A stretch of 60,290 nucleotides of DNA from Hydrolagus affinis (taxonomy: Eukaryota): assembly GCA_012026655.1 (NCBI GenBank), contig JAAILG010001903.1, forward strand, positions 1-60,290. Direction: 5' to 3'. This document shows positions 1 through 50,677 of this stretch, one piece after another. The first letter of the stretch is position 1; the number at the start of each line of letters is the position of its first letter. A model generated the notes under the pieces. That model worked only from the letters and a program-made list of their open reading frames with translations. It was not told the DNA's origin and made no database searches. A program made the position numbers and the translations under genes.

Positions 1-435
1 GCCCTGTAATTACTGCATTTCCATATGAAGAATGCTGGAGTACTTTGACATTTCAACCAAAGCCTGCGCTATTCAAAATGTAAAGGTCATCAGCGTTTCA
101 GAATGACATAACTGTGAATGTTGAAGAGAAATAATGAACTTTTACCCTCCATTTTTCTCTTGTCTTTTTTCTTTAAATGACGTACTCCCTCCCATGATTT
201 TTTAATTTGAGAATGCAATGAGACGTGAAATGTACCCAGGCCTTTCCAGTGGTGGCCTGACTGGCTACTTGTATTTGCTCTAAATTCCAGTGTCTCTGAT
301 TTACGTGGTCAGGCAATTTAGCAGGCCAGCACATGCAGTATTACTTTGAATTTTAATCTTCAATTATAATCTGACCCGACAGATAAAATGATTCACTAGT
401 GTGGTTCTGACCTCCAACCCTCAGAGCAGACTTAC

Positions 436-563
436 TTTTCGTTCCAATTGCCTTTTGGTTTGCACTTCAACTTCCAATTTATCCTCAAATTCTTGTTGCA
501 TTCGCTTTTTGGTAAAGTCAATCTCTCGCATTGCACGCTCGTATTTCATTCGCCATTCTCCAC
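436..563 (-). CDS. MYO18A: MYO18A exon, coiled coil ([42 protein letters not shown])
   Basis: ctacag| acceptor, |gtaagt donor, 128 nt, phase 1 to 0. Confidence 0.95.
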
Positions 564-24500: not shown

Positions 24501-27500
24501 GAGCAAAACGAGTGCAAAGTTGATTTAAGGGCCCTAATATGAATGAAGAGAAACACAAGCCGTAATAGAATTGACAATATGTTTTTAAAATAAACATTAT
24601 GCTTATAAATACATAATAATATAATAATCCTTGCATTTGATACAACACTTTTCACATCTTATCAACGTCTCAAAGTGCAAAGCCAATTGCGCACAGCAGT
24701 GTCCCACAAACAGTCATGTATTGAAATTATTAATTTTATTTTTGTGGTTTTTTGGAGGACGGATTATTATTAGGCGTGTAGAATAAGAAAACTTGCCCAA
24801 GGTTTCGCCCTAATCTGCCTGGATTCGAACACAGTCACACGCTTGTAAGGCGAGTGCTCTAACCACTGAGCTACAGGAGTTCTTGAAATTTAAAATATTT
24901 TTGTAAAGTTACACTAAACATCCATTAGGTAAACTTGCTGAAATGCCACAAGTCATGAAATGAATTGATATTTAACTGTTAAAAGAATATAATCTCAATA
25001 AAAATAAATCTTAGAATCATAGAATCTTACGGGACAAAAGGAGGCCATTCAGCCCATCGAGTCTGTGCCTGCTCTTTGAAAAGAGCAATTCAATTGCACT
25101 GCCCAGCTCTCTCCCCATAACCGGCAAACCCACCCTCCCCAAATAAACGTCTACCTCTCTTTTAAAAGTTGTTATTAAATTGGCCTCCACCACCTTTTCA
25201 GGCAATGCATTCTTACAACAGGAAATAAATTGGGAAGAGAGATATCAAAACTGAATGTATGTATTATCACACCTAAGGTAGAGGTTTCTGAGGAGCAAGG
25301 CACAAAACATTTTGTGCTTTTCCAAAAGAAGCAAATGTTTACTGAAAATACATGATGTAATTAATTATGCAACCAAAATACCATTACAAATAATCTAGGT
25401 TAAGGCAGAATGCTGCACTACATTTCTCAAACCATAAATTGTGAAAATATAATTACCACCTACACATGTGGCAACAGTTTCACCCTATCAATATCTATTT
25501 ATTTAAATGAACAATTATGGAAATAAACTGTTAAAAATGTGTTTGTATATTCTGCAGGTTTACGCTAAACATGCTTATTAAATACATCTGGCACATTTTG
25601 AAAACAATTGAAGAATTACCTGTTAATGAGTGAGATTAACAACATAAACAACTCTCCGTATAAACTGGATGCAATCCCCTGTAGACACTCCATCGCTGCT
25701 ATTTTAGGTCCTATTAAAGCACACATACGTCACCATAGAACTTGAAAGTAGCACATTGTACTTAAAAAACGCAGAGATACACAAGGTTATTTGTTGTCAT
25801 GAACATACATGTTGCATAAAGGTGGATTCATTATTATTATTATTATTCATTTCTTTGTGCAATTTACAATACACACAAGATATATTCGATGTACAAGATG
25901 CATTCAACTGCTGTAAATCTGCATTTTTTTCAGCCACTTTTAAAATGAGCAGCTTTGATAAAAATGAATATTTTGGAGGTGTTTTACCTTGGCCATCTCC
26001 CTGTCCACTCTCATCTGATCCTTGCCGGATGGAAGGTGATCTTGGCAGCGTGCCCTTTAGCTGGTGCTTGAAAATAGAGGAGGACAGTTCTTCCAGGCTG
26101 CAACCTAACAGGTAGGCTGCTTTCTGCGCCCATTCATGTCTGGCAAACTGCCTTCTCCCAGCTTAAAACACAAGTTTAGAGAGCAGTTTATGAATACAAA
26201 TGCAGTGCAATGTACGAAAAATATTCTTAAGACACTGTTTAAGCATTATTCTCATATCACTACATTAACTTATGATAATCCCAAAATTGGATTTATAACT
26301 CTGGCTTTAAAGCTGAATGATAACCTAATACTTGGTTTGTACTGTACTTCTCATAGCAATTCACCGTGAAAAGCCCAGTAAACAGTGTTGAGAAGTGCTG
26401 TGTGAATGTAACTCAGACTGGAAGCTGGCTTCCATGATTACTTTAAGAGTGGCTTTTTGGGCACACCAATTTATACCTGTGAAATATAATTACAAATTGT
26501 GTGAATCAATTCACTTCCATTCAGTAATAGCCCGACTGGAAATTTGGGATCAATATTTAATGCTGCTAAAGAGATGGTTGCGTAACTGGTTCTTTAATAC
26601 AATTAAACCGCACAGAGCTTGTGCATTTAGTTGTCCTTGGACAGAATCTTCTTAAGCGCTGGACAACGTGATAAGGAATGGATAGTATAAAAGAGACTCT
26701 CCATTCCTCATTTACAGTGTTTCACTAACAGTAGCATAAACAAACAAAGCATCAGATATCAGCATTGAATTCCTAGTTCTGGCTAACATTTGCAATTAGG
26801 CTTTCCTTACAATTTGACAATTTTAAGCAAGCTGTTCAAAAGAAGGATAGAGGGAAAATTAGTCCTGCCCAAATCACATTCCCTTTTATCCACATAATCT
26901 CTTTGTCCAGAAATTTTCAACAAATATATAAATATATATATAAATATCTAGAATCTGTACTGTAAAGTCTAAACTGAGATTAAATTGTTACAAACTATTT
27001 TCTCCAAATCGATACTTGCATATATACTTACACATATATAAATGTACATAAAATATTGAATGGGAATTTTTTTTCCATAAGACACACAGAGGTAACTGGA
27101 TTTTCTGAAACTTTTCATCATATCTGCCTCATAACAGAGAATACTTTTCTCATGTTGGAAATGCCATTTTGTTTCATAGTTGTGAAATTAGGGGAAAAAA
27201 GCAATGTTGCAATTCTTTAAGTCAAACAATTAATGCCCTGTTTATATTGCTCGAACACGGAATGGTTGAACGTTATGGAACAAGAAACCTGACTTACTTT
27301 CCTTGCTTGTGATTAAGGAAGCTTCTATCTATTTGCAATTAAATATGTGGACTGCCACTAGCCAGTTTTGTATTACTAAAAAGCCTCCCACATGACTATC
27401 TGCCCAACAATAAATACTATTGGCCAGACATTAGCATGAACTTGCATCTTCAGGGTTGGTGGAGGAGGGAAAAAGATGGAAGGAACGTGAAAAGCAAGAC

Positions 27501-30500
27501 TGTGTTCAATATATATATTTTTGGTAAAGAATGAAAGCGGATGAAATTCTAAGAGGAAATACCTGGGACATAGCTATTTATTGTATATTTCTGCTGTTCT
27601 CACTAGAACTTTATATATTCAATACCTGGATAAATCACTATATGTAGATAAACTCAAAATTAATCTGAGATAAAGCATTCAATAATATATAGATCTACAA
27701 ATTAAATCACTGTGTATTTGTGGAATATGAAATACTAAATGAAAGCTTTGAGTGTCAACAAACAGGGAAAAGATCTATAAAACCTACATCATATATATTT
27801 TAAATTTTGTAAATAAAATAGCTTTGAGGCAGAAAATGGAAACATACAATGATGAATTATTTTTACCTTCATCACCATCTGTGTTGTTATGCCACAGCAT
27901 GCAACATGCAAACAAAAAAAATGTTAGGAAGCAGTTTCACTTTTAATATCCATCAGCAAAAAAAACTGCAATGCTGCAAAATAAGCAGGAAAATGCTTTC
28001 CAAGGTTAACCATGTTTAGCACAACGCGCATTTCAAAACAAGAGAATACATGCAAGATCAAAATAAATAAGATAAGGCGGAATAGGTTTTCAGATATTTG
28101 AACGATTAGGTACATATTACACTTACTTTAAAACAAACGATTGTAATCAATGTGCCTAAGTTACTATTTCCACATAGTTCGGTGAATGTAAATAATGCAA
28201 AGCAAAACAGACACTTCCAATTACCAGCTGGGACACAGGGCTCACAGATTTCCATGTCAATGAAGCAAGATTGTTCTGCTAAACTATTATACTGCTTGAT
28301 AAGGTGACTGGAATATTTTGCAAGGCAGCTGAACAAAATCCCAAATACATGGAGCATTTTCAAAGAAATTGGGTCACGTCACTTTCTTCAGCAGTGAAAA
28401 TCCAATTTTCTTGCACGAAAGTATTGCACAGTGCATATTAAAAAAAAGTATGCTGCACTTAACAAACCCTTAAGATGTGAACAATTTTAAATTGTTAAGA
28501 TATATTGTACACTTTTCTTTAGCATTCTAGAAATGTGAATTAGGATAGGCTGTGTATCTAACAACACATAGTTTTAGTGCCCTCATGTGGGCAGGTTTTT
28601 AAACTCACAGGTCAACAACATCAAGACTGAAGGAAGCCTCTTTAGGATTCTGAATCTGTGTTACATTTGGACAAACATAAAATTAAGAAAATTATCTCTT
28701 TTCACCCCAAAACTACCAGTACTTCACCCTTATTCCTGGAGACAAAGGATTGACAGACCATTTAACAACGGGCATCATTGCCAAGCAAAATCTTATTCTC
28801 ATCTAACATCCAAAATCTGCTGTTTCTAAGCATGCATACAAGATTTTCCCAAGCAGCTAGCTGCTACACAAGCTGATATGTTTAAACTGCAAAAAAAAAT
28901 CCTAATTCTAAAGTGTTTTATTCTCTCATATAGTCTACATCATCCAGGCAAACTACAAAGCAATATTGCTAATTATGTTAAAATGCATTTGCAAATATAA
29001 GAGAATGTTCTTAGCTCAGACAAGTGCCAATTAGTGTATATGCCCTTTATACTGCTTAATGAAATTCTACAAGGAAAGCATTCAAGCTTTTATTTCTACC
29101 CTGTAGCAGAATGTAATGTGATTCTGAAGTGCAATATTTAATTTATATTTGAAATACATATATTGTAAGCCACTTCAATATGCAAAGCAAAACTGCAAAA
29201 GATACTCACAATAAAAATTGTTATTTCCTTAGCCAATATCCAGGGTTGGTGACAGTAACAATATAATAATCCGTGCATTTGATACATCAGGGGGGCATCT
29301 CAAAGCATTTCACATGGTTACTGTATTTTTCCACAAACAGTCATAAAGTGAATGACTATTTCATCTGCAGGATTCCTTGTTAATCTAATAAAACCCTAAA
29401 AATATTCTACGGTCATTGTCCAAATGGTAATGGCTAATTTGTTTCATGTCCTGAATTGAATGATCCCTTGGAATTTTCCCTGAAATGCAAAGCAATGATT
29501 CACTAAGGCCAATCTACTTTGGCTAGTGTGGGCGTTCTCGAAAGGCCTTTGAGAGAAAATCAGCAGGTTTGAAGGTCGGAACAAGAGAGAAAGACCCAAC
29601 ATAGTTTTTTTCTGTAATGTGAAAAAGGGACTATCTGTTGATAAAACTTTCCCTTACAGTACTTCTATTTTAAATAAATACTTTTAAGGTCTGTTATGTA
29701 AACAAAAATTTAAACTATTATATGTATAGTATTTCGAATTTAGAATTAAAAGCATCTAACTTTAATTGGAAAAGGAGCTGGTAAGATTGTTGACGTATTT
29801 CCAACTTTATTTTGTGCAGTGTGGCTTTCTGGTGTTTTATCATCAGTCCAGGCTATTCTAAGTCTGATTGTCTATACCTATGTAATCAGTGCTTACCCAG
29901 CATAAGAACAGAAGGAACTGAGATTTGTTGCAACCATGAAAAGGCTGCTGGAGGTAATTCGATGAGAGAAGTCAAATAATCATAAATTTGTGACAGTCAT
30001 AACAACAGTTAGCTATAGCTTATTTGACACATGAAAGTCAATCAGTTGAATAATTTCAAATGTTAGTGTTTTAACTATATGACATTTGTGGTGTCCTGTA
30101 GCTTATTGGTTAGAGCTTACCTCACATGCAAGAAAACCTGAGTTCCATTCCTGGGTGCGGCAAAAGATTAGGCAAATTTATTTGCTTTACATACTTCTGT
30201 TTACCAAGCAGTAAGTAGGAACCTGGTTGTTCGTTGGATGGGAGGTCGCTTTGCCAGGGATAATAATGCCTTCAAAATAATAAGAATTTGGTCACTCATT
30301 CTATGACTGTTTGTGGAACACTGTTGTGCGCAATTAGCACTCACAAATTATACAGTCAATTCACTTTACAGTATACTCTGTGAAGTGCTTGGAGATGTCT
30401 AAGACTTGATAAGGCTCTCTATCAAATGCAAGGATTATGTGAAATAACATGTGAGCAAAAGAACAGCATCATACTAGAGAGGGTATAAAGAAGAACAATC

Positions 30501-33500
30501 GAGTGGATCCCAGGGTGTAATGTTGTAAAGAATGTGCTGTCAACTGGATGCACTGTAGTTTTAATTGCAGAAGATTACAGATGAACATTATCCAAGTCCT
30601 TATTAATGAAGAGAGACACAAATAATGTAATGAAAGCAGGTTATTGAACTTGAACAATGATGGCTGACATGAGTAAAAAAACTGTCAAGCCTCAAGCAAG
30701 ACTACAGATTAGAAGTTATTTTTCCATCCACAGAGCAGCAGATGTTTGGAACAGAATTCTATCAAAAGCAATTAATGTTATGTTGATAAACGTCTTTAAA
30801 GGGGAGCTCAAAGAAATATCTTGTGTGGAGTGGAATTGAAGGTTATAAGTTTAGACATAAGGGAATAAACATTCTGTGGAGCACTGTGGCTCCAATCTTT
30901 TTAGGATCATAGTGATAACATCCATGGAATAGCATTAGTTAGGGTGGGACATAAATTCTGATGATAACCTAGAGTTATGCTAATTAAATTACATCTGGCT
31001 AAAGTTTTTATACATGGTGCAAATATAATTCTGTTGAGGTTTGTTTTGCTAGCCACCCAGCTGTGCTACACTGTAAACAAGATAGTTTAAAAATTAATCT
31101 GCGTACTACCTGGAGCAATTTGCAATGAAGCAGATGGAGAAAACATTATTAAACAGAGATTAGACAGCTGTGACAATACCAATCAAAAGTCTTACTTAAA
31201 TTATTAGCAAATGTCATTTTCTCCAATTAATTGCTGCGAGGGAAACGGAAGAGTGTTTGGTGATTCTGTGCTGTACCCTCCACCTCCATATGGAAACAAT
31301 TTCCATTTACTTTCAATTCAATTTTAGTCAGATTTATGATTCATTGTGTTATTATTTCAAAGTCCCCCAAATTACAGTACATATTGTTGTACAAAATACT
31401 TCAAGAAGCACATTACTTGCTCTTTCTAATCTGAGCAATGCTATTTTGTAAACAAATCTATTTTGGTGGAAGTTATTGATTTTGCTTCAATTACTGTTTG
31501 TGGCAGAGAATTCCATATTCTATCTAACTATCCATGTAGAGATTTTTTTCCTTAGATTCCCCAAGTTCCGTTTTGGCTTACATTGCATTTACAATTGTTA
31601 GGTATGCAGTTGTAAAATCAATTGAGACTTATCACCATTGCAGTCAGTATGGAACGACCATTGTATCAGCCATAGGACGTGTAACAGTTGTATCGAAATA
31701 GGTAAATGTAAAGAAAATGTAATACAAAGATACTACACGCAATTGCTCATACTGATTTATTCGGAAATTTCTCAATAGCAAGAAGCTGATATACTGAGGT
31801 AGACTGAGAGGTAAATTCCATAATTTTAATGCTTTCCATCAATTTTGACTGTGTTCACAAATTACAAGTCCAAAGATTTTTTCACCTGTGAGTATCTTTA
31901 AGAATATTTAAAACTTTATTTGCATCAAATGTTATTCTATACATGGACTATTTTAAAAATAGCGATTTTGTTTAAAAGAAAAATTTGAAAATATCGATTG
32001 ATGTGTTATCAAAAATTCTCTTCACTGAACTTTAATGTATCCATAATACTCTATAGGTTTATGTTTATTCCAGAACTTCATGATACTTATTCCTTTTGCC
32101 ATGGTTCAAACAACTAAGCAGTGGCATTGCTTCCTAATGATGTCCTTCATGGAGATATTGTGTTGAATTTTAAAAAGATAACCCATCAATTTGAAAGAGT
32201 CACATATTGGCTGTAGAAACAAAACATTCTTTCATGTGCAAGGTACTCAAGCAAGCTGTTATTATAATCTAACCTCGCAACACACATTTACAACTCTAAG
32301 CAGTTGCATTTCTCAAATAATTAATTCTTCATTCCAGCAGTCAATGAACCATGCAGTTCCATGGAGCATGTAATGATCTGTGTCTATCATTATCTGCCTA
32401 ATCTTCAACCCTGTTTGTAAAAGGAATTTGTCCTGCCCGCTTTTGGAAAAAATTCCAAAATACTGTAATTTGTCCATTTGTCAAATTTCATCAACTTCTT
32501 ATTTACATTTCTGCTGTTTCCTGTGAAACAATTCTTAAATACTAAACATTAGTCTGTGTGTTGCAAAATGCTTATTTTGAAACATATAGCATAATTTTAC
32601 AAGGTGCCAGCAAAAAGATAAAGGATGTGGTTGTTGCTAGCCAATAAATAGATGCATGGTAACAAAAACATACCAAAGGGCAGTCATGCAATGGAGGACA
32701 AAAATAACCTTTCCAAATTTGTTTTCTAAAATCACATTGCTAAAGTCCAAAGCACTGATCTGGTCAGTCATAAATTTAACATTTATTTTCAAGTCAAAAG
32801 CTTTTTAAACTTCATTTGCTTGGTTTGAAACTTATCGCAGTTTAAGAAAAATCTCCTCTAGATACATAGAAATTACAACCCACATAATCAGGTATGTGCC
32901 AGTATATCTGTGCAATAATCTCTATTTTAAAATCAAAATATTTCAAGACTACTTTACATGATTAGAAAGCAAGTTACCCAACTGAAATCAAATCTCACAT
33001 TTATCTCAACTCTAAACCACTGAAACGTCCCTCACAACCACTTTAGTAACCACTGAGAGATTGTTTAGGGTTATCAGAATCAATCAGCTTTTCTTGTGGA
33101 TTCCTGATGGTTTGTGACAGATTAAAGTGCTTAGTTTGCACATCAGATTTCTGTACAATTCCATCAATATTTTACTTCTAAGATTTCACTGACAGCAGGC
33201 ATCAGCCTATTCCGTATCCCACATCGTACCCACCCCACCCCTATCGGTGTGTGAGCTTTCAGTCTTTCCGTCTCTCGATTCTGGAATTTCTCTGACTTTA
33301 CCTCTCCCTCTCCTTGTGCAAGGTCCATCTTAAGACCTATAATTTTGACCATGTGTTCAGGCATCTTTTTTCCCCACCCACTGGCATACACCCATAGCTT
33401 GGGTCCAAGTCAGTTCTGTTAAGTGCTTTGGGATGCCTTCTGAACATACAACGCACAGTATAAAATTTTAAATTTGTACTGTTAGATATTCCAGTTGCCA

Positions 33501-36500
33501 TTTGCGTGAACTCCAAACTTGCATTCACTCGATAGGTGCAGGAGCATCAGAAAGCAAAAGGTGAACAGAAAACAATGCGTTTGTAGACTCTCCTTGATAA
33601 TGCTTTCACTTGTAACATACTGTAAAACCCAATTAATATCTGAACTGTTACTGAGTTTCCAGGAAAAAGAATGCTGTCATAGCGCTATGCAAGCACATTT
33701 TGTGCATTAATTAGATCCAATAAAAATTCTACTGTCTGGTTTTTATATTTTATAACAAAGGCAAATATTAATAGCTCATGAAACTAAGTGGGGGAGAATT
33801 ATCAGTGGGAAATCAGACTAACTAAACAGCCATGTGTCCCAGCGTCAGATCTGATAAGCACAATTCAACTGCATATGCATCAAAACTAAAATTACATATG
33901 CATCAAAACTAAAATTAAAACAAAGCAGCAGTAAGTTATTTATAGATGAAACTTGAACTATATACATTTATTATACTTTTATATTTACATAATAGTAGAG
34001 ACATTTGTTATAATAGCTCTGGGTATTGCATAGGGCCATTAGTAAAATAATTGTAAAGACATTCAAAATAGTTTTTAGAAGTCACTTGTTAAAATGTAAA
34101 TGATCTACACAGTACCTTTCGTGGCTCCTGCTGCCCCCAAGTGGTAGATGGCGCCCAAGATATGCCAGAATGCTTTTTGTTCATCAACTGAAATTCCCAG
34201 TACTTTCATAGCAACCTGGAGTTTGTTAAATTGTTGAGCTGCCTTCTGTTTCTCTTCAGGCTGGAGACAATTAAATACTCTCAGTAATTTTTAATAAAAT
34301 GTCATATTCAAGGATTTTTCCACTTCTAAATTTATAATCAGGCAAATAAATCTGGGCTTCACCCAGAAATCATCTTAACCTGTCGACAAAGTGATCAGTA
34401 TCTGCACATACAAAACTGTTGCCAGATTAAGCCATAAATGGCATGATCATGCAGAATAATGGTTGAATTAAGAAGATATTGTATAACCGAGAGTCTGAAG
34501 AGAGTTACAAGATTTTAGATGAAAAGGTGTTGGCAAGGCATCAAAAAAGGGAAGTAATTATCAATGCTACCTCAATTCTGAGATATGCTGCTGACTAGAA
34601 AAACAATCCACCTTGAGCTACTCTTGTATTCCAACTGTACAGTATTCCCTCATTTGATGCTTTCAAGTAATGCCATAATTTAAAATCCTGCTCACTTCTG
34701 AGCCCACATCTCAACTGCAACCCCCTGAGCCCTTCAGCTCAACTGTTTTACATCTAAATCTCAAAACCAATTTATTTTCTCGGTTTTCAATTTACTTCTA
34801 TGACCTGGAATTAGTCCATATCAAACTATTTTGCCTAAATTTATGTAACTGAGCAGCCTTCAAGTTGCAAGAATAGTTGCTGCATGCGAAAATCACCATG
34901 CCTGCTCTTAAATATTCAAGCTTTTGTTATCCTCTCTGAATTCTCCACAAAAAGTTGTGATTTGTACTTTTTAAAGTATATTTCCAAGATAATCTATCAC
35001 TATTGCCAATTTTAATGCAATGAAATCAGGTTTCTTTTCATCTTCCCTTTTTATAGCCCAAATTAGCAGTACACTTATACCTTGGTTGGCTGGATTTGTG
35101 GATGGGGGAGGGGAAGAGAAGGAAGGATGACTTTACAATTAATCATCGTGGGATATATTTAACTGAAGATAGTTAATAATACCTTTGATAATGGTGTAAT
35201 TCCAAACAAACTGTTTTCTACAAAGTGATTCAGGTGAAGCTCAGTTCTGTAAATGGGAAAATAAAAAAAAATTTAGCCGTGGAAGTCATTTGTATTGTTA
35301 AATAACATAAAGGCATAGATTAATTGAAATCAGTTATACAACAGTACCTGAGAGCACTGTCGGCTCCAGCCATCAGGTAATAGAACACATTGAATGTCCC
35401 TTCATTCTCTGGACGCTTAGCAACCCTGAGCTTCTCCAAAAGCATGGTCTATTAAAGAGAAATTTTTTATGTATGTCTTCATAAATCACAACAACATGCG
35501 CTTACATAGAACCCTCCACGCAGGGTCGAGTGCTTAACAATACCGGAGCCGGTGGGGGAGGTGACTATAAGCACAGTCAACAAGGGAGGTTTTTAGGCGG
35601 GACTTGAAGAAAGAGATCACGTTGCTGTTATGGAGGTAGCTTTGTATTTAAAGCTTGCAAAATGGTATGTTCATATCCCTCATTTTTTTTAAAAAAAGGA
35701 ATCCAGATTGAAGGTTGAAATTCTCCAGTCAAGACACTCAAAATATTCTTTGAAGCACCTCTCTTTTTCTCACCTGTACAGAGGCTGAAGCCACCTGACC
35801 AGTCTGGTCAAAGTCAAGCGAGATGATCTGTGAGAAGCGAGTGGCATTGGCATTCATACTTGTACTGCTGTTGCCAAAGGCCTCCAAAATAGAATACACA
35901 GCCTGCCATTTCTCCACTGTGAAGTTCAAACATTGGAAGAGATAGCAATCAATGGAAGTCTCAGTTCAATTTAAGAAGGATACCTATGGTACTAAAAGCA
36001 TAAAAATTATATTTTTACGTAAAAGAAAAACTCTCAAGTTATGGTTCGAATTTGGACTTTACACCTACCCGTGATGAACTTTCCTGTACTGCCTGCAATT
36101 GTGACTAGATACTGAACGAGGTGCTGACTGTTTGTGGTTTTCCCACTGCCAGTTCGTCCCAAAAGAACAATAGATTGGTCCTGTCGTGTCGTAAGCAAGT
36201 TTCGATACGCAGCTTGTGCAACGGCATACACATGCGGAGAAGTATCTTCCCTACGACAACCTTTGAACATGTGCATAACCTATAACAAGAATGCAATCAG
36301 CTTCCATATGCTTGTAAATAAACAGCAAATTTTCTTCCATAGATATATATAAAATATATATACATAATAAGAAATACAGTAAAAGCCTGTTTATCCGGCA
36401 CCCGCGGGACTTGGCCAATGCCGGGTAAAGCGCCTGCCGAATATTCGGGCGGCCCGGGGCCGAAAACCCACCACAAAAAAATTAAAGTTCTTTTAACACA

Positions 36501-39500
36501 CACCATACATACCAGACTAAATAATAACAGAATATTGTATTGGTACTTATTGCTAAAACTACTCTCTTGCGCTTATCACCTTTTACTGATTGAAGTTTAC
36601 AGTCCAGCGATTCTTTTTTAAATGGAGGACGCCAAGCAGGTGAAAAAAACGGCAGCTCGATTTTAAAATCTTGCGACTTTACTAGAGGCAAGCAGATAGC
36701 CCTTGACTCTACTACCGGCAAACTGAAATACTGCACCTGCGCGACAATGTGGGTTATCGGCTAGCATTATCGGCTTGCCGCTAGTATGGCTTTAAAATCG
36801 TGCTCCGTTTTTTTCACCCACTTGGCGTGCTCCATTTTAAAAAGAATTACTGGACTATAAACCTCAACCTTGCAGCATCATGGCTTCAAGAGCAGCAGCT
36901 ACTAGTAAAGGTGAGAAGCGCAAGAGAGTAGTTTTAACAATAAGTACCAATACAACATTCTGTTATTATGTTATTATTTATGCATTTACAAATGCTTCAC
37001 TACTATTGTTCTGGATAAGTTCCGGTTTATCGAATGGGGACTCTTCTTTTGGCTTGCTGGTTATACGGAAGGGCCGGTTCATCGAGTCACAGATAAATGA
37101 GCTTCTACTGTATATAATATATACACACACATTATATATGCAACAAACTTTCAAACATAACGCAAGCAACCAGTCATTCAAAATTGGATCAATTGGTTTA
37201 AACAACAACTTTGATTTATATAGCGCCCTCCACGCCGGACGGCGTCTCAGAGCGTTTCACTGTGTAAGTATTCTGTCACATATGTATGTTTGCCAGTATG
37301 TAACAATTGCACACCAGAAAAAAACAATATTCAAGACATACCTTTTCAGAGTACATTGAAGGAGAGCTGAGCGGATTCACCACAACCATGTTTGGCCCTG
37401 CAAATGTGTGGATCAGGTTACCGCCGTAGCGTTGGCGTAATGTGTGCAGAACACTACACTCATTGAGATACAACAAGGAAGCAAGATCTTCCACTCGGTC
37501 ATAAGTTGGTGGATTTGCCTGTTTAAATACAACAATAATTACTAATGCAAACACAATACATTTGGAGGTGTATGGCGGTGTTGTACCATGATTCATTTGG
37601 CCAATCATTTCCTTGACTCTATGATAAGTCACAACACTTCTGATGTTAAAGCTCTTCGTTATTTGGAAAAGGAGTGTTAAATCTTTATTAACTAATCATT
37701 TAAATGACACAGTTTAGTCATTCTGACTACAATTAGTAAAAGATAGTAAATATTGTTCAACTTAAAAATACCTAGACAGCACAGCCATTTTGGAGTTTAG
37801 AGAGTACAGGCAAAAAGTAAAATGAGAAATAGGGAATTGATGACAAGAAGATTGTATATGGTTGGGGAAGCAGATTGTTTAATGGACAGAATAATCTCTT
37901 CTCGTTTCAAACATGGTGTTCTTGTACCCCAGAACTAATTTGAGACATGAAAAAAAAATACCTTCTCCACATCATCTTCATCCACATCCAGTATTTTTCC
38001 ATCATGGTCCAGTTTAATTTTCACTTTGCCTTCAGGGAGGCTGGATTCTTCAGCATCAGCCGTTAAGTGAGTACCTAGAGAAATAAAAGCCCCTTTAGAC
38101 TTAAAAGACACACCCAAAAAGATTGGACAATTTCTACAATTATACTAAATAAACTTCAGAGATATTAGCTTTGTGTAAATTAAGAATTGGTCTAAGATTA
38201 AAGTAGCTTAACAAACTAGTTACTAGATAATTTTAAAAAATGCATTCATCTGGCATGTTCTGAACATCATATTTGCAGAAATCGACAAGTTGAAAGACCG
38301 AGTGCAATCATAATCCACCCACTCTAACTATTGAATTTATAATTCTAAAATACAACATTAAAACACCTCATCAATTGTTAAGTCATCAGCAAGATGAGTG
38401 CCATCGAAATACTCAAAAATGGTCATCACAAGATATGAATAGTTGCCTTGACCTACAAGTCACCCTAATGTAGTGAAATCTCTGTTCAATTCTCTATTCA
38501 ATTTTCACACAAATGAGATGACGAATACAATTTAGGCACTGCAAGGAGGAAAATCTGACAAATATTCATATGGATGTGAAGGTGCAGGTCAATCATGTTC
38601 ACATGAATTGAGACTTCACAGTGTCAAGAGAATTTCTAGAAAGAGATTTACTAACATGAGAGATTCAATAAATCTATACATCTTGAATATTTTAGGCAAT
38701 AATATTTAGCTATTCGCCAAGTGTTTAGAAATAAAAGTATGCCGGGGGTGGTGGTGGTGGAACTTCTTTCATTGGCCTTGATAATCATTGTAACAGCTCT
38801 GTAGAAATGGAAAATGGTTTCAGATGAAGCTGTCAACATTGAATAAATCTGATACGAGACAGTTCAGGAAGGAAAATAAAATGATAACACAATTTGGAGC
38901 ATAGCTCCCCATATCCTAGACATGCTGGTTTTGCTGCTTGGAAAGCAGGTTATCCTTTTGACGTAGGAACATTGCTGAAAATACTATTTTTAAAATCTGG
39001 AACTTCATTCTTATTCATCCAACGATGGAGAGGAATTATTATCTGGATTACCTAATGAAAATCCATCCTTGTGGGCCAGCCACACCTTATCGGCTTCATA
39101 CCAGGCTTGCTCTACAGCAATCTGCTCCTCTGTCTTCAGCTAGAATTAGAAATTGGACGTCAGTTCGATTAAAATATCAGGCATGCATACATTCTTGTCA
39201 CTCATTATAGACATGCAGTCTCTCTCTCTTACTCACACACTTTAAATAAATGCTGTAGCAAATATAATTTAAGATTTTAGAACACAAAAACATTATATTT
39301 TTACAGCACACACGTCTACCACTAGAGAATTATCTAACACACATTAAGAGAATTACCTAATACACATTGTGAGCAAAGCTATTATAACAGCAGCAACAAA
39401 TTACATTTATTTCCTCCCACATCCCAAGCTACTGGTCAGTTGAGGATTTGCACCCAAGCTGGAAGTTGTTAAATTTAGGAGAATTTAGAAGGACAAAGTG

Positions 39501-45500: not shown

Positions 45501-48500
45501 ACACAAACTTCAGTAAAACTTTTATTTCTGTATCTCTGGTACACTGCACACATACTCTGGTTAGTTGGTACATGCTTTTCAGAAGAAATACCTCGCCTTT
45601 AACCAATTGTTGCTGTTGTAGTTTGTCTGGTTGTGTTTTGAATTGTTCCAAAGGAGGGGAAGCCGTTCTTTTGTTCAGCAAATCATCCGGACAAGTCTCG
45701 AAAACTTCCTCCTTCTTCTCTGGGACTCGCCGAGGTTTGTGATCTTTTGATTTTCCCCGGGTCATTAGGCTAGCCAACCCCACTGATATATCATCTTTAA
45801 CTGTAGTTTTCTTTCCTGGAGTTGCTGGTTCTATTTTTGTAGGAATAGGAACTTTTTTCCTAACATGTAGCGCAGTCTTGCTACTCTCCGTTTTAGATGG
45901 CCCTGTTGCTTCTAAAACTGGCTTGGTCTCTGCTTTGTTTTCCTTTGGTTGCTTTGTAGATTTTATCTCTTTCACCTTTCCCTTACTGTCTATTTCATCT
46001 AAAACCTTCTGCATCATTTTCTTAGCCGCTTTGGCCACTTTCTTATGAGGAACTCCCTGGTCCTCATGAACCAACTCAGTCTGGCTCTCAGTATGCATAT
46101 CTTGTTTTATTTTCTCTTGTATGTTAAACTTGCTTCCGAATTGTTCAGTTGAACTTCCATTTTCACCATTTATCTCCGGTTGCGGACTGCTGATCATCTG
46201 CTCCCTGTCATTCACCACATTAGTATTTGCACCATTTTCCGACTAAATTAACATACCGCAAAACAAAATGTTCCATAAATTATAATGGTAGAAAGAAAAG
46301 CTATAGCAGATGAATGATATGGCAGGTAGCAAGCACAATAAGCAAAAGGAATAAAACTAGAGTAAATACAAATGTGGTAACTAAGTATCAGTTAAGAACA
46401 GCTATATTTATATGATAAATCTAGTTTCGTCCCTAAACCTTGAATAATTAATACATAACAATGCTAATAATGTATAATGCAGCTTTATAATATAAATTAA
46501 ATTTAAAATGTATAGTATTAAAGTGCATTGATATCACACTTTAGCTATTTATCTATTAAGCAAAAACATATACAATATTAAGCAAAAATACTCTCAAATG
46601 CACAACAGCAGGAAACACCACCTAAAAGATTGGTTCCAGAGGTGTGGTTTCAAAATGACTGTACAGTAATTTCCCTCCCCATCCAACAAACAACTTCATA
46701 ATTAGAATGAGTGTTATGTCCATGCATTAATAAAAGTTAAAATTAATCTTCTCCATAAATTCTGGTTTGTTAGCAGCAATAACATTATGAAAATAAAGAC
46801 CTAATTCCAATATTCCACTTTTGTTAACTGTTCAGCAATATTACATATGCACTGAACACAAATAAAACTAAAACTACAAACCAAAGAAGTATGTTTTTGT
46901 TTTTCCTTATTTTCATACATGCACATGAACAGACCAGTGCAAGTTGCTTTTTAAATATTTAGGGCCTTTTCAATTCTACTATAATATACTACCAGCTGTT
47001 TTTCTTCCCAATCAGCAGAACGTTCACAAAATATTTTGTAAAATATCATTGATTGTGGAATATTTAAATGAGGATTCTGTTCCCACCCTAAATGGCTTGC
47101 AGTATTTAATCCAATAGGAATGTGCAAATAGAAAGGAAAAATAAACGTGTTACTCCACCATCTAAATACAGTACAACCAACCTCCACTTTAAAATGTCCA
47201 TTTAAAAATATCGGGTTATATAATGGTAAGCTTTCTTTCTAGCTTATGTATATCTTGCAAAGCAAAATACCTGCAGCAAACTGCAGTGTCTTAATCTTCA
47301 TTACATCTGCTAATTTCCTGATTTTTTGTGTGCAAAATATTATTTATCATGCAGCTATTGCATGCCTGAAACTGAAGCCTATACTTTGATTAGGTTTTGT
47401 TCACACACTACTGAATAAAGTCCCACACAGAAAGACTCAAAGAACAGCGTAGTTAATATGCTGCACTGCAGCAAGCCTCATCTGCCTTCTAGCCCACCAG
47501 TTATGCCGTTCCTTCCTATAAAGAAACAACTTTCTTTTCAGCAATCCATATTGCAAGTCATACTGGAGCTCTCAACAAGACCTAATTCAAGCTCCCAGCT
47601 TTTTCAATTCAAAGCACAGTAGAAAAAAAATATTAAATAGGCTAACCTGAGCACATCTTCTAAGATCCAGTCGTTTATAGGAGGATCTTTGGAAACCTTC
47701 CATGCCCAAATGAAATCAACACATCTACTGCATCTGCTGATGCAGTATCAATCACAATCTCCAGTAAGAGAAGGCCAACCACAAGGTTGCTGTGGCATTA
47801 AAAAAGCAAGTGCAGAAATGCAAATTTTCCATTTTATACTTCTTGATTAATGGAAAACTATAACACTTCCAATGCAAGTTTGGTTTCTATTGAACATTCC
47901 CTCGATGGGTCAGATATCTTTAATGGTCATTAAACTAATTAGGTGACCTGACAAAGTATATTTTCTGCAGTAAATACGCAAATATAAAGTCATCAGCATT
48001 CCTGTAAAATGTATGATTTTCAGAAAACTGACTAAGTATTAAATGCAACTGCATTTGACAGTCATTTTGAATCTAACACAGACAGGATAATATAAATACA
48101 ATTTTTAAAAACTGGATCTAAAAGCAAATTAGCACTGAACACAAATGTGAGTTACTGATTCTAAAAACATGACAACCATTTTAAGAAACTTACAGATTGT
48201 TCACAATTTTGCTGTTGGTCTTCATCAAGAGATTCCACTTGGACAACAGGCAATGACTTTTTCTTATCCAAAGGTTTTTCCTCCTTAACCTAATTAGTTA
48301 TAGGATGAGGTTGCAATATGACAGTCTGAATTTGAAGATACCATGCACAGTGCCCATATCACTTCAGTTAAAACTGGACACCTCCAGCAAAATTGTATTT
48401 ATAATACTGTAATAAGGTATATAAAGCTAATACGGTTCTAAATCTCTTAGTATAAATGCATCAATAATAATCCCAATAATCCCAATTAATACATTTGTGA

Positions 48501-49286
48501 GAGTTAATTATCCATATTTTTTTTATTAATTTATTATCAGACTATACATTATGCATAATATACTCTACCCATTTTAAACAATGTTAGTTAAATTTGAATA
48601 AAATGTAATTAGCAGTGCAGTTTGTAACATCTACAGAATAAAAGCCAAACTAAACAATTTCGGGCAGAAGTAGAACATCATCCATCCCACCTACTCATCC
48701 AATTTTTCACAATGTTCCATCAATATACTATATCTAGCAATAAATATAATAGCCCAGAGTCCTATGACAGGAACTTGTCTAGTTCCTTTTTGAAACCCTT
48801 TGTTGATTTAAATGGAATTGGATGAGATAATGAAGTATTTATGGTTTGTATCTACAATAAATCCCTTGAGGCTTCTCAATTTCTTGCTGCCTGGTTGAGC
48901 TTCAACAGTATTACTTGCTATTATGAAAACATAGAAGTATAACACAAGAATAGATAAAACAAAACATGAACAGTTTTCGCCTTTACCACAGGCACCCAGC
49001 AGTAGGAGATTCAACACTAAATAAACACTAAATTCCCAGAACTGGAAGCATTTTATATAATCAATTTTCCTTGGCAGCAAGTGTATAAAATTTGCAAATA
49101 AAAGCTTACTTTGTTTTTCGCCCACCCAATTGTTGAGGAGGTAGTAAGACTCCTCATTACTACAACCCAACCTAAGAACCACCATGTCAAATACGATTTA
49201 TTGCTAATTGCAAATGTAAATGATTCATATTTTAAAACAGGACTTCCCTTTTTCTCCCAAAATGCAAACCGTGATGAGAAAGCCAT
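436..49286 (-). CDS. MYO18A: Unconventional myosin-18A, multi-exon, partial (3' end and alpha/PDZ exon outside the window); span includes the candidate gamma-type first exons
   Basis: Spliced translation follows the human MYO18A sequence as I recall it, co-linearly (KTEEQIA..., [62 protein letters not shown]). Exon phases are consistent throughout. Confidence 0.97.
1092..1206 (-). CDS. MYO18A: MYO18A exon, coiled coil ([38 protein letters not shown])
   Basis: ttcag| and |gttagt, 115 nt, phase 0 to 1. Confidence 0.95.
1535..1654 (-). CDS. MYO18A: MYO18A exon, coiled coil ([40 protein letters not shown])
   Basis: cacag| and |gtggga, 120 nt, phase 0-0. Confidence 0.95.
2798..2887 (-). CDS. MYO18A: MYO18A exon, start of coiled coil ([30 protein letters not shown])
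   Basis: catcag| and |gtaagt, 90 nt, phase 0-0. Confidence 0.95.
3465..3755 (+). mobile_element. L2-clade LINE 3' fragment
   Basis: Translates [14 protein letters not shown] (hallmark of the L2 ORF2 C-terminus); tail gtgctgtccaaatgcaagttgtt. Confidence 0.7.
4788..4995. repeat. Tandem duplication, two diverged units of about 100 bp
   Basis: acattttcagatttacata...acaaacaagataactca...ttcttcaac..attattaat occurs twice. Confidence 0.75.
5069..5212 (-). CDS. MYO18A: MYO18A exon, neck/hook ([48 protein letters not shown])
   Basis: ttcag| and |gtaagt, 144 nt; WxWWKLF hook motif; inside ORF 5027..5245. Confidence 0.96.
5560..5688 (-). CDS. MYO18A: MYO18A exon, converter end plus IQ motif ([43 protein letters not shown])
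   Basis: tttatag| and |gtaaaa, 129 nt; FQxxxRGxxxR IQ motif. Confidence 0.96.
5776..5867 (+). mobile_element. SINE 3' tail fragment
   Basis: gtgaagcgctttgagatgttg...gcactatatcaaatacaaggattatt. Confidence 0.75.
6275..6592 (-). mobile_element. tRNA-derived SINE with L2-type 3' tail, full length
   Basis: Head has A box TAGCTCAGTGG and B box GTTCAAATCC; tail ...tatatcaaatgtaaggattatta; near-identical head at 24.8 kb. Confidence 0.85.
8618..8852 (-). mobile_element. L2-clade LINE 3' end
   Basis: aacaacttggatttatgtagcgccctccacgcc...; shared with copies at 35.5, 37.2 and 57.8 kb. Confidence 0.75.
9590..9900 (+). mobile_element. LF-SINE-like ancient element
   Basis: ccagttcccagtgggcatgagttcacatcacaaaa and aattgacacgaagctggcagtctca resemble the recalled LF-SINE core; boundaries approximate. 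Confidence 0.55.
13778..13843 (-). CDS. MYO18A: MYO18A exon, converter ([22 protein letters not shown])
   Basis: ttttag| and |gtaagg, 66 nt, phase 0-0. Confidence 0.95.
14714..14723. promoter_or_regulatory. CArG box (SRF site)
   Basis: CCTTATATGG, perfect CC(A/T)6GG; motif only. Confidence 0.35.
16308..17018. mobile_element. Non-autonomous Tigger/pogo-like (Tc1/mariner superfamily) MITE with long internal palindrome, copy 1
   Basis: TIRs CAGTAGAAGCCCATTTATCCG ... CGGATAAACGGGCTTTTACTG; TA on the left flank; CpG-rich relative to surroundings; no transposase ORF. Confidence 0.85.
17440..17549 (-). CDS. MYO18A: MYO18A exon ([37 protein letters not shown])
   Basis: ctatag| and |gtgagt, 110 nt, phase 1 to 0. 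Confidence 0.96.
17745..17872 (+). mobile_element. CR1 LINE 3' UTR fragment
   Basis: gatgggccgaatgacttccttcggtgctatataattctatgac. Confidence 0.7.
18062..18141. promoter_or_regulatory. Promoter-like motif cluster (ETS, RFX X-box, CCAAT)
   Basis: CACTTCCTG (18062), GTCTCCTAGCAAC (18115), ATTGG (18137) in a locally GC-richer non-repeat patch. Confidence 0.35.
18290..18715. mobile_element. Two SINE 3' fragments tail-to-tail (about 18290-18413 on +, about 18570-18715 on -)
   Basis: ctatatcaaatgcaagcattatt and its reverse complement aataattcttgcatttgatatag. Confidence 0.7.
19765..20170 (-). mobile_element. Deu-domain SINE (SacSINE1/AmnSINE1-like), degraded
   Basis: Minus strand reads ctctgagtcagaaagttgtgagttcaag (head), then gtcggaggggctgttcttcagatgagacgtttaaaactgagg...aagatcacatggcactgttct (resembles the Deu core as recalled), then L2-type tail. 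Confidence 0.65.
20289..20529 (-). CDS. MYO18A: MYO18A exon, motor ([21 protein letters not shown]...[20 protein letters not shown])
   Basis: gacag| and |gtaggt, 241 nt, phase 0 to 1. Confidence 0.95.
20913..21099 (-). CDS. MYO18A: MYO18A exon, motor ([62 protein letters not shown])
   Basis: cctag| and |gttagt, 187 nt, phase 2 to 0. Confidence 0.96.
21180..21325 (-). mobile_element. SINE 3' fragment
   Basis: ataataataatccttgcatttgatgtagcgccttatcac...ccaattgcgcacagcagtgtc. Confidence 0.75.
21412..21571 (-). CDS. MYO18A: MYO18A exon, motor ([54 protein letters not shown])
   Basis: ttacag| and |gtaaga, 160 nt, phase 1 to 2. Confidence 0.96.
21777..21918 (-). CDS. MYO18A: MYO18A exon, motor ([47 protein letters not shown])
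   Basis: ggtag| and |gtaaag, 142 nt, phase 0 to 1. Confidence 0.96.
22455..22548 (+). mobile_element. CR1 LINE 3' UTR fragment
   Basis: gatgggccgaatagcctccttctgtgctgtataattctatga. Confidence 0.7.
23394..23506. repeat. Direct repeat aaattcatttgattgaaacctgt (two copies) bracketing a tatactgat minisatellite
   Basis: Read directly from the sequence. Confidence 0.8.
23846..23932 (-). CDS. MYO18A: MYO18A exon, motor ([29 protein letters not shown])
   Basis: ctctag| and |gtaaga, 87 nt, phase 0-0. Confidence 0.94.
24341..24533 (-). CDS. MYO18A: MYO18A exon, switch-2 and relay ([24 protein letters not shown]...[31 protein letters not shown])
   Basis: attag| and |gtattc, 193 nt, phase 2 to 0. Confidence 0.96.
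24615..24882 (-). mobile_element. tRNA-derived SINE, same family, internal deletion
   Basis: Same A/B-box head (TAGCTCAGTGG, GTTCGAATCC) and tail atcaaatgcaaggattattat. Confidence 0.85.
25012..25212 (-). mobile_element. CR1 LINE 3' end
   Basis: [25 protein letters not shown] (CR1 ORF2 C-terminus) followed by gatgggctgaatggcctcc...attctatgattcta tail. Confidence 0.8.
25620..25710 (-). CDS. MYO18A: MYO18A exon, motor ([31 protein letters not shown])
   Basis: aatag| and |gtaatt, 91 nt, phase 1 to 2. Confidence 0.94.
25988..26161 (-). CDS. MYO18A: MYO18A exon, motor ([58 protein letters not shown])
   Basis: ttttaag| (AAG acceptor) and |gtaaaa, 174 nt, phase 1-1. Confidence 0.95.
27298..27324 (-). 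CDS. MYO18A: Candidate 27-nt cassette microexon (EASLITSKE)
   Basis: ttgcaaatagatag| acceptor, AAA|gtaagt consensus donor; phase 1-1 and open in frame; no homology recalled. Confidence 0.35.
27867..27878 (-). CDS. MYO18A: 12-nt microexon (DGDE), positional equivalent of human EAAE
   Basis: aacacag|ATGGTGATGAAG|gtaaaa; phase 1-1; fills the 4-residue gap between GATK and AGR(K/R)QF seen in the human protein. Confidence 0.8.
28225..28278 (-). CDS. MYO18A: Candidate 54/51-nt cassette exon ([18 protein letters not shown])
   Basis: tttag|CAG tandem acceptor, CTG|gtaatt donor, phase 1-1 and open; weak pyrimidine tract. Confidence 0.25.
29262..29360 (-). mobile_element. Degraded SINE 3' fragment
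   Basis: ataataatccgtgcatttgatac...catctcaaagcatttcac. Confidence 0.55.
29897..29917 (-). CDS. MYO18A: Candidate 21-nt cassette microexon (VPSVLML)
   Basis: ttgcaacaaatctcag|TTCCTTCTGTTCTTATGCTGG|gtaagc; phase 1-1 and open in frame. Confidence 0.5.
30091..30438 (+). mobile_element. tRNA-derived SINE, older related subfamily
   Basis: tcctgtagcttattggttagagc head; tail atcaaatgcaaggattat. Confidence 0.75.
30660..30850 (+). mobile_element. Degraded CR1 ORF2 C-terminal fragment
   Basis: [17 protein letters not shown]...FKGEL resembles CR1 RxFFxxRVVxxWNxLP...FKxxL. Confidence 0.5.
33170..33478 (+). mobile_element. Degraded L2-like 3' fragment
   Basis: Pyrimidine-rich body ending aagtgctttgggatgccttc...gtataaaatt. 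Confidence 0.45.
33872..33917. repeat. Perfect 23-bp tandem duplication
   Basis: catatgcatcaaaactaaaatta, two copies. Confidence 0.9.
34116..34260 (-). CDS. MYO18A: MYO18A exon, motor ([48 protein letters not shown])
   Basis: ctccag| and |gtactg, 145 nt, phase 0 to 1. Confidence 0.96.
35183..35246 (-). CDS. MYO18A: MYO18A exon, motor ([22 protein letters not shown])
   Basis: ttacag| and |gtatta, 64 nt, phase 2 to 0. Confidence 0.95.
35348..35448 (-). CDS. MYO18A: MYO18A exon, motor ([34 protein letters not shown])
   Basis: aatag| and |gtactg, 101 nt, phase 0 to 2. Confidence 0.96.
35488..35620 (-). mobile_element. L2-clade LINE 3' end
   Basis: acaacaacatgcgcttacatagaaccctccacgc... GC-rich body similar to the 8.6-kb copy. 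Confidence 0.6.
35774..35916 (-). CDS. MYO18A: MYO18A exon, switch-1 ([48 protein letters not shown])
   Basis: tcacag| and |gtgaga, 143 nt, phase 1 to 0. Confidence 0.96.
36069..36279 (-). CDS. MYO18A: MYO18A exon, P-loop ([12 protein letters not shown]...[38 protein letters not shown])
   Basis: ttatag| and |gtaggt, 211 nt, phase 0 to 1. Confidence 0.97.
36377..37110. mobile_element. Same MITE family, copy 2, inverted relative to copy 1
   Basis: TA|CAGTAAAAGCCTGTTTATCCG ... AGATAAATGAGCTTCTACTG|TA; reverse complement aligns along copy 1. Confidence 0.88.
37200..37262 (-). mobile_element. L2-clade LINE 3' terminus
   Basis: aacaacaactttgatttatatagcgccctccacgccggacggcgtctcagagcg. Confidence 0.7.
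37342..37518 (-). CDS. MYO18A: MYO18A exon, motor start ([59 protein letters not shown])
   Basis: aacag| and |gtatgt, 177 nt, phase 0-0. Confidence 0.97.
37962..38074 (-). CDS. MYO18A: MYO18A exon, SH3-like ([38 protein letters not shown])
   Basis: ctctag| and |gtattt, 113 nt, phase 1 to 0. Confidence 0.96.
39052..39139 (-). CDS. MYO18A: MYO18A first common exon ([29 protein letters not shown])
   Basis: ttctag| and |gtaatc, 88 nt, phase 0 to 1; matches human AKTEEQIAAEEAW...KVWLVHRDGFSL. Confidence 0.96.
39470..39780 (-). mobile_element. Degraded L2-like fragment
   Basis: Purine-rich; gaaggtcttgagac...gaagttccagag resembles the other L2 copies. Confidence 0.45.
40584..40640. repeat. 26-bp direct repeat, period 31
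   Basis: ctaagaaaataacacatgagatgaag, two copies. Confidence 0.9.
40716..40784 (-). CDS. MYO18A: Alternative N-terminal cassette exon ([23 protein letters not shown]); a second acceptor 6 nt inside gives 63 nt
   Basis: ctctccag| and CAG|gttggc, 69 nt, phase 0-0; GC-richer island in AT-rich intron. Confidence 0.7.
41721..41952. mobile_element. Small old MITE with central hairpin
   Basis: Imperfect TIRs CAGGGCGACCTCATTATAA ... TTACAATGGGGTCACCCTG followed by TA; central 30-bp stem at 41816-41879. Confidence 0.65.
42753..42830 (-). CDS. MYO18A: Alternative N-terminal cassette exon ([26 protein letters not shown]), GC donor
   Basis: gtcacag| acceptor with pyrimidine tract; phase 0-0 (78 nt) only with the CAG|gcaggt donor. 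Confidence 0.6.
44127..44201 (-). CDS. MYO18A: Gamma-type N-terminal exon ([25 protein letters not shown])
   Basis: ctttag| and |gtaaaa, 75 nt, phase 0-0, open. Confidence 0.65.
44940..45032 (-). CDS. MYO18A: Gamma-type N-terminal exon ([31 protein letters not shown])
   Basis: Pyrimidine tract plus tttgaag| acceptor, CAG|gtgtgt donor, 93 nt, phase 0-0. Confidence 0.7.
45592..46242 (-). CDS. MYO18A: Large gamma-type N-terminal exon, 217 aa, K/E/P/Q-rich, probably disordered ([16 protein letters not shown]...[22 protein letters not shown]...QQQLVKGE)
   Basis: Longest ORF in the window (45460..46218); aatttag| and GAG|gtattt, 651 nt, phase 0-0. Confidence 0.85.
48194..48289 (-). CDS. MYO18A: Gamma-type N-terminal exon 2 ([32 protein letters not shown])
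   Basis: ctaattag| and TCT|gtaagt, 96 nt, phase 0-0; VKEE aligns with the MYO18B IREE that follows MAISSRLALWEQK. Confidence 0.75.
49248..49286 (-). CDS. MYO18A: Gamma-type first coding exon ([13 protein letters not shown]); may extend to 49110
   Basis: ATG in gcagcATGG Kozak context; peptide resembles the MYO18B start MAISSRLALWEQK; donor is non-canonical (see findings). Confidence 0.75.
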
Positions 49287-50677
49287 GCTGCTGTCATGAA
49301 CTGGGAATTGGTTTTATGAAAAGATGGCAATTACAGAACAGTTGTTGGACCGGAACCCAAGTTCTTCCTAGCAACTGAAATTGGTGCAGCACATTGCCCT
49401 GGATTATGACCATGAAGTGGGACCTGGACACACGTGTGATGGTCACTGCAAGTACAGAGAAAGTGGAAAGCAGAAAGTCACAGTAAAGGTCACTTACAAT
49501 TATAAAGCTACAGCAACTATTTCAGCTAGCTGCTGGGTTGAATTTTACCAACAAAACTTTTAAAAAGGTGCAATGGGATGCAGAATTATCTGACTGGGAT
49601 GAAAAAAAACACAGAATCACAAAATATTTCACTAATTGTTGGTTTCTCAACTTGATCCATTCTGATAATGGTACCTTTCCTGATAACCAACTTTTGGAAC
49701 TACAGTAATTTATTGCCATTTGCAACTTAAATAGAAGGGTTAAAAAAATTCAGATTGAGAACATTTGATCTTACAAAATCCTAATTTGCATAACAATAGA
49801 TGTATTGCAATATAAAAAGTTACATTTTGTTGCCTTAAATGTAGGTAATCTATCTAACAGAGGACATACAACTTTTCACATACTAAATACTGGCATTTGG
49901 TATTAGAGAATCTGATAGCTCATGAGTTTGGCACATAGAACGAACTTTCAAAACACCTTATGACTCAGTCTATATATTTTTCTGCTGGATGACAACTTGC
50001 ATGATATACTATACACATGAACCAATAAATCAATTGAAAATTGCGAAAATAGGAAACAAACCCTTCTTTGCAAAGTTGGTCCACTATATGCTAGAGTAGT
50101 ATAAAATAAAATGGAGTCATTCTGTGTTTTACTTAAAGTGCACAGTGTTCTTTGAAGGGATTTTGTTTAAGCTAAATATGGACACTCCTGGAGTTGCTGT
50201 GGTCATCTGTTTGAATTAGACTCAGTGACTGGGTAAGTGGACAAAGTTAATCATCAACAGGATTATGAATTACAGACACAAGAGGAAATGATTAAACTTT
50301 ATATCAGAATCTGGATTATATACTATGATAGAGTGTCAAAAATCTGAAGAGTTAGTTAAATAACTGGATAAACAGGTGAGCTGAGAAAAATTGACGGCCA
50401 GTAACAGACTCTCCCACCATTTGTATTTATAAAGATTTGTAAAACTAGAGATTAATATCTAGGGCCCAAAGTATAAAAAAGTGATATACTTATGTTGATA
50501 ATTTACACCACATATACATATCTCAAACCATTTTTGTTAAAGGAATGAACTTCCAAAATATTTTGATGCAGTTTCAGTAAATGGATTGTACAGTGAAATT
50601 TTTTTTGAAGTACCATTGTACACATCACAGAAGATGCAAGATTATCAAAATTACAAATTAAAATTTGGTGATAATAC

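Follow-up and report, generated by a model that had tools for sequence, protein, structure and literature searches.

The window analysed here is a 60,290-nucleotide (nt) stretch of Hydrolagus affinis DNA (contig JAAILG010001903.1, assembly GCA_012026655.1), whose minus strand carries a gene supported by its sequence as MYO18A of the gamma type. The first coding exon of this gene is followed by GG at the position where a 5' splice site (donor) ordinarily reads GT. The GG at 49247-49246 is real and is present in two relatives (organisms A and B), and we consider it highly probable that it is a working 5' splice site and an inherited non-GT donor. Of the two parts of this reading, use of a GG-AG intron is very likely. 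Given such use, inheritance of a non-GT donor from before the duplication that separated MYO18A from MYO18B is fairly probable, since a GA-AG intron follows the same codon in human MYO18B. An initial annotation of this stretch, made from the letters alone, had offered a GG-AG intron as one of several readings, and it is this reading that DNA and RNA reads, teleost proteins and the human MYO18B intron now back.

On the minus strand, the ATG at 49286 opens 13 codons whose last base is 49248, followed by GGAAGTCC (+1 = 49247, +2 = 49246). The sequence therefore reads exactly as the initial annotation had given it, with AAG/GGAAGT after codon 13 (the slash marks the splice boundary). The features at this site are as follows.

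49248..49286, minus strand: first coding exon of the gamma-type MYO18A N-terminus, 13 codons, its ATG with A at -3 and G at +4
49240..49250, minus strand: non-canonical GG donor, AAG/GGAAGTCC, matching the U1-complementary consensus at 7 of 11 positions, with the same base in DNA runs X1, X2 and X7
48290..49247, minus strand: probable GG-AG intron of 958 nt, phase 0, placed from the donor, the acceptor, DNA and RNA reads and teleost proteins
48194..48289, minus strand: second coding exon, 96 nt, phase 0 on both sides, starting VKEEK and ending at a phase-0 GT donor

The acceptor reads TAATTAG/GTTAAG at 48290/48289. AG/G is common to both ends of the intron, so the junction could be shifted by -2 to +1, and no such shift yields GT-AG, GC-AG or AT-AC. 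The site has the makings of a U2-type GG-AG intron, with U2-like bases at the other donor positions (AAGT at +3 to +6) and an AG acceptor. The donor agrees with the consensus at +1 and at +3 to +6, for which hand arithmetic at 34% GC gives about 1 in 1000. The motif AG/GGAAGT occurs twice in the window, once per strand, and is thus not rare by itself; what is not chance is its position, where the end of the teleost N-terminus match coincides with a donor consensus.

Three other accounts of the site were considered and set aside. U12-type introns have the donor consensus RTATCCTT, and GGAAGTCC rules this class out. RNA editing to GT was rejected because G-to-U editing is not known to occur. Folding of the RNA around the GG donor and the downstream GT donor is ordinary (z score 0.37), and a structural explanation was dropped on that ground; Rfam gave no matches within 47000-52000.

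The position of the junction is set by protein comparison. Among 124 proteins, two carry the conserved start, P0047 from Diretmus and P0085 from Stegastes (XP_008274577.1). After the equivalent of codon 13 both proceed without insertion to VKEDNK or IKDENK, sequence that resembles exon 2 here. Exon 1 is 85% identical to them over 13 of 13 residues (expectation value E 2.5e-07 within the window), and when the two teleost N-termini are searched against the window with tblastn the match stops exactly at 49248. Homology had already been said to put the junction at AAG/GGAAGT, and the tblastn boundary agrees. The 46 codons that lie beyond the GG in the same frame encode a sequence with no similarity to any of the 124 proteins (best E 9.8). 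A separate search with the first 40 read-through codons, limited to 2000 residues, found no matches, a blank that carries little weight as it missed P0047 and P0085 too. Three further MYO18A models, from perch, rattlesnake and eel (P0098, P0081 and P0014), have an exon-2-like start, a first exon that is different or absent, and none of the 13-residue start. These hint at annotation trouble at this donor and are no evidence on the donor sequence itself. The exon was also sought in other vertebrates by two pattern scans of metagenome contigs, which gave no matches.

Of 16 runs listed for the stretch, four were compared with it, one of RNA and three of DNA; the DNA runs come from three studies, and all of them cover the site. 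Run X1 (record 7), which could be the source sample, covers 49152-49546 with 0 differences at a depth of 2.8. Run X2 (record 9), from organism A, gives one contig over the whole stretch at depth 50, with 24 other letters, and run X7 (record 23), from organism B, covers 49149-49657 at depth 29 with 7 other letters and a 13-nt gap. In all three, no letter other than G stands at 49246. The G is thus true genomic sequence, which excludes an error or a private allele. Assembly error or polymorphism had been among the earlier readings, together with the advice to look for T or C at +2 in reads and to align the donor across related species. The reads hold neither letter, both relatives carry GG, and that reading falls. 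Variation among the three amounts to 39 of 1801 sites (about 2%); the unchanged G is older than the split of this genome from organisms A and B but does not show selection.

The strongest argument for use of the GG donor, and for a non-GT donor that was inherited or is favoured by the site, comes from human MYO18B. The supplement of Parada et al. 2014 (PMC4176328) lists MYO18B chr22:26157098+26159197 as a U2-type GA-AG intron, with 846 reads from 6 tissues including heart and skeletal muscle, 6 complementary DNAs (cDNAs) and four GENCODE transcripts; in the accessible parts of that paper MYO18B appears in the table only and not in the main text. Since these are 0-based hg19 coordinates, the exon that follows begins at 26,159,198. 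The variant rs133885 lies at 26,159,289 (PMC3591001 table 1; PMC8633773 table 3) and swaps G and E at codon 44 (c.131), and from this position and codon the exon after the intron starts at c.40. The human GA-AG intron therefore follows MYO18B codon 13 (c.39/c.40) and has phase 0, and in both respects it equals the GG site. Myo18A-gamma and Myo18B are described as highly similar over their first 19 residues (PMC11112018), which would align without a gap, and MYO18B, found only in vertebrates, is thought to derive from MYO18A by duplication (PMC7900500). GA and GG donors make up 0.006% and 0.014% of human exons (PMC12805630), so rare that a chance coincidence at the same codon is very unlikely. 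The earlier suggestion of a lineage-specific donor loss is hard to hold with a non-canonical donor at the same codon in the human paralogue.

If the GG is passed over, the next donor in frame is a canonical one. Two features describe this stretch.

49110..49247, minus strand: possible exon extension of 138 nt, open and in frame here and in organism A, broken in organism B
49102..49112, minus strand: competing canonical donor, AAA/GTAAGCTT, matching the consensus at 7 of 11 positions; the exon would end at 49110 and the intron begin at 49109

Both the GT donor 138 nt downstream and a frame open for 46 codons had been noted before, and the sequence confirms them. An open frame of that length has a chance of about 0.055, which times one third for phase gives about 0.02. 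In organism B, the 22nd read-through codon is TAA in place of TCA owing to a change at 49222, and 125 nt of the 138 remain after a deletion of 13 nt at 49202. The sole indel in exon 2 is a 9-nt in-frame deletion at 48248-48256 in organism A. With a stop and a frameshift, the protein cannot be made via the GT donor in organism B, a carrier of the GG. Rescue of a lost donor by exonised intron sequence, another of the readings first put forward, calls for an extension open and in frame in every carrier, and organism B speaks against it as the main route. The GT donor is likely minor or cryptic; it may be used as a minor leak, and a minor longer form is possible in this genome and in organism A.

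RNA reads come from run X13 of organism B, of which 27 in 100 was read, with a threshold for a splice joint of 3 reads from 2 starts. Of the sixteen reads placed, 7 fall on a repeat (48765-48803), a single one on exon 2 and the other 8 within 49108-49441. The nine reads outside the repeat all point the same way, as expected of a minus-strand transcript if the library is stranded. By calculation the exon-2 read spans 48194-48280 and stops at the donor of that exon. Across the GG site depth falls from 5 at 49300 to 1 at 49222, and it ends below 49442; the remaining intron shows no non-repeat depth. Read ends were calculated from binned depths in which deleted bases are uncounted, assuming 101-nt reads. 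On that assumption every arrangement tried has three reads with their ends in 49240-49250, and a 36-base remainder corresponds to three reads ending at 49247, the expected stop of a GG-spliced read, with 19 letters unaligned. There are 559 arrangements that place all unaligned letters at the GG junction, and 9 of these also fit the three start places reported. The reads of X13 are at most suggestive of GG use with some leak. The repeat at 48765-48803 is a short dispersed fragment within the intron, and many unrelated contigs stack there along with the 7 RNA reads.

Several points weigh against a GG donor that is both used and inherited. Those that concern inheritance begin with the low divergence of the relatives, at which 49246 would remain unchanged in 98 of 100 cases anyway, so that the shared G is a mark of age and not of selection. 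The case for antiquity draws on a single close group together with one paralogue in human. MYO18A has 0 matches in the human non-canonical list of PMC4176328 in its accessible form, and the human MYO18A donor may be canonical or unseen. A GG that is used here, but that arose in this lineage independently of the MYO18B GA, would fit this small sample and the missing MYO18A entry. It would also fit the difference between the dinucleotides (GG and GA), and the strong surrounding sequence would tolerate loss of the +2 T, much as leaky +2 variants come from strong donors (PMC12805630). Even so, two events near 1 in 10,000 at the same intron are implausible without a shared cause, and we regard an independent origin as unlikely.

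The remaining points concern use. Of the non-canonical donors tested in reporters only one ranks below GG (PMC6280755), and reporter and minigene GG sites are among the weakest. The extension is identical in this genome and organism A. At the threshold given, no splice joint is listed in X13, nor is there depth at the start of exon 2, and 2660 to 3724 arrangements without any GG-spliced read fit the binned depths as well. Five reads come from about three start places and possibly represent few molecules. Two of the eight exon reads lie in the extension, one of which crosses the GG site unspliced by arithmetic, and one extension read computes to an end at 49108, as if spliced at the GT donor. 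The two extension reads would fit a GG site that is dead or nearly so, with transcripts using the GT donor at 49110 and adding 46 residues here and in organism A, and with organism B having lost the conserved N-terminus or starting further down. The open, phase-0 frame of the unchanged 138 nt and the absence of non-repeat depth in the remaining intron speak for the same explanation. A dead GG site is nevertheless improbable. Organism B transcribes the exon despite the stop and frameshift in its extension, depth falls across the GG site, both teleost N-termini lack an insertion, and the coincidence with the human GA-AG intron would be left unexplained.

The junction could also lie in a shifted register, at a GA at 49246 or a GT at +5. 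The GA would be in frame with exon 2 only from an upstream ATG at 49297, which lies 51 nt, and so in phase 0, from 49247, and some non-canonical sites are cut at +5 in reporters (PMC6280755). Either site matches the consensus at 4 of 11 positions, the upstream ATG has weak start context and the conserved peptide is in the other frame, all of which makes a shifted register very improbable. An assembly error or private allele at 49246 has nothing found in its favour and can be practically dismissed, as three DNA runs from three studies, two of them of diverged organisms at depth 29-50, agree with the window.

Use of the GG donor would join the conserved 13-residue start of muscle-type MYO18A to exon 2. 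The major spliceosome would read the site through U1 pairing at -2, -1, +1 and +3 to +6, with cleavage presumably before +1. The 7 of 11 matches of the GG donor equal the count of the GT donor at 49110 and of many ordinary donors in the gene. Lack of T at +2 would leave a weak site dependent on enhancers, for which the purine-rich exon end and T-rich intron start are candidates; the last bases of exon 1 are a run of purines, and T makes up 42% of the intron start, just slightly over background. Reporters indicate that GG needs an upstream SR-protein site and downstream TIA1 sites (PMC6280755), and in minigenes two ATM +2T>G variants gave 13% and 24% full-length transcript (PMC12805630). Part of the transcripts would bypass the GG, either by running to the GT donor at 49110 or by retaining the intron. 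These bypass transcripts would be non-productive in organism B and would carry 46 additional residues here and in organism A. A weak site combined with non-productive bypass would limit, or make regulable, the dose of a sarcomeric isoform with the conserved N-terminal peptide. We lean slightly towards a broader proposal, in which MYO18A and MYO18B have both kept a non-GT donor at the intron of the N-terminal peptide since before their duplication, with +2 moving between A and G and never back to T. If so, selection would have favoured a weak site under enhancer control, through which the amount of the A-band form or its restriction to muscle is set.

Introns of the GG-AG class are already on record as rarities, and FGFR1-3 provide a precedent for paralogues with a common non-canonical donor. 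The closest comparison remains the GA-AG intron of human MYO18B, which lies in a paralogous, muscle-expressed gene after codon 13, in phase 0, and combines a non-GT donor that is otherwise U2-like with an AG acceptor. It differs in its dinucleotide and in having 846 junction reads, whereas here the donor is GG and no junction read is listed. Vertebrate U2-type GG-AG introns in CPSF3, COL21A1 and EFHC2 (PMC4176328) and in ATM (PMC12805630) likewise have an otherwise consensus donor and an AG acceptor. In the accessible supplement of PMC4176328, 23 of 28 GG-AG rows (28 of 161 places) are unannotated with low reads or are non-U2-like, and these are mostly minor forms; in the present gene no donor other than the GG yields the conserved start of the protein. 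FGFR1, 2 and 3 share a conserved GA donor (Twigg 1998 and Brackenridge 2003, as cited in PMC4176328), an alternative site whose use depends on a GT located 6 nt upstream and whose dinucleotide is GA in every paralogue. The present site has no such GT, and the two myosin paralogues have different dinucleotides. In the copepod Eurytemora affinis GG donors are used, with GA and GG donors genome-wide at about 12% of introns (PMC5714493), while the other donors checked in the present gene are all GT. This case is set apart by a GG donor as the sole route to a conserved start, the lack of a helper GT 6 nt upstream, and a dinucleotide that differs between paralogues.

A description of the GG site or of the MYO18A/MYO18B link was not found among the papers listed in the literature searches, which left the original gamma paper, subscription journals and bioRxiv supplements outside their scope. 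The accessible parts of PMC7072748 and of the TOGA2 preprint do not mention the GG site, the review PMC11112018 as available has no note on splice sites (0 matches for 'splice' or 'exon'), and neither MYO18A nor MYO18B occurs in 11 supplementary files of PMC6280755. Few splice sites are rarer than natural GG donors, which are mostly minor variants, so that a GG donor with a GA paralogue offers a natural test of whether evolution puts up with such sites as accidents or maintains them as weak links. Exon 1 would be overlooked by annotation pipelines or exchanged for another, and the muscle isoform may be hidden in many genomes. In MYO18B, a myopathy gene, variants around c.39+1 to +6 would be misjudged by tools trained on GT donors.

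The assignment of the gene to MYO18A draws on its shared exons, and that to the gamma type on the exons further upstream.

424..39145, minus strand: shared MYO18A motor, neck and tail exons, with a GT donor near 23 of the 23 exon ends checked
45592..46242, minus strand: third, large gamma-specific exon, with homology to the N-terminal parts of MYO18A models from sturgeon, gecko, snake and teleost
49445..49480, minus strand: acceptor-like pyrimidine tract and CAG, hinting at a non-coding exon further upstream
49232..49297, minus strand: overlapping upstream open reading frame of 21 codons, its ATG 11 nt before the main start and in weak context

The GT donors of the shared exons were located by a nearest-match scan in 22 of 23 cases and by eye for the 23rd. 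A search with one motor-domain exon gave 215 matches among 236 candidates, the best named being Callorhinchus milii Myosin XVIIIA at 98%, and the name MYO18B is absent among the 120 listed of these 215. The best match points to a cartilaginous fish, probably close to the chimaeras. Atlas searches returned a generic myosin head and otherwise no usable match, and the PDB search gave class-2 myosins alone among the 60 matches shown. The exons starting at 49286, 48289 and 46242 form an N-terminal extension without a PDZ domain and with a conserved extreme N-terminus, as in the gamma isoform reviewed in PMC11112018 and PMC7900500. Mouse Myo18A-gamma (Horsthemke et al. 2019, via the same two reviews) similarly has an extension without the PDZ or KE region spliced onto the motor, and its extreme N-terminus is Myo18B-like, as here; its alternative C-terminus lies outside the window. 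A homologue search with exon 3, limited to 2000 residues, found no matches, and this blank carries little weight.

The exon starting at 49286 had been called the first gamma exon. The gamma N-terminus stands, and the exon is probably the first coding exon and not the first exon, because 49445 marks the end of the pyrimidine tract and CAG and no RNA depth is seen at 49442 and above. This suggests a non-coding exon upstream of 49445. A further donor-like motif, ATT/GTAAGT, lies at 49497 on the minus strand, just 52 nt upstream of the CAG end at 49445. The overlapping upstream open reading frame could damp translation; its ATG at 49297 has no change listed in organisms A and B.

Three further segments of the minus strand drew attention. 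At 42693-42791 a translated match to gecko and bird MYO18A models (44-56% identity, E down to 9e-08) is Cys/Trp-rich and perhaps in the wrong reading frame; the segment, which lies between the gamma exons and the first of the shared ones, is perhaps a conserved exon or other element. A weak match to a bird MYO18A model (E 0.04) at 44124-44189 is possibly a further gamma-specific exon. The segment at about 50680-50810 resembles what we take to be the tail of a shark or ray family of short or long interspersed nuclear elements (SINE or LINE).

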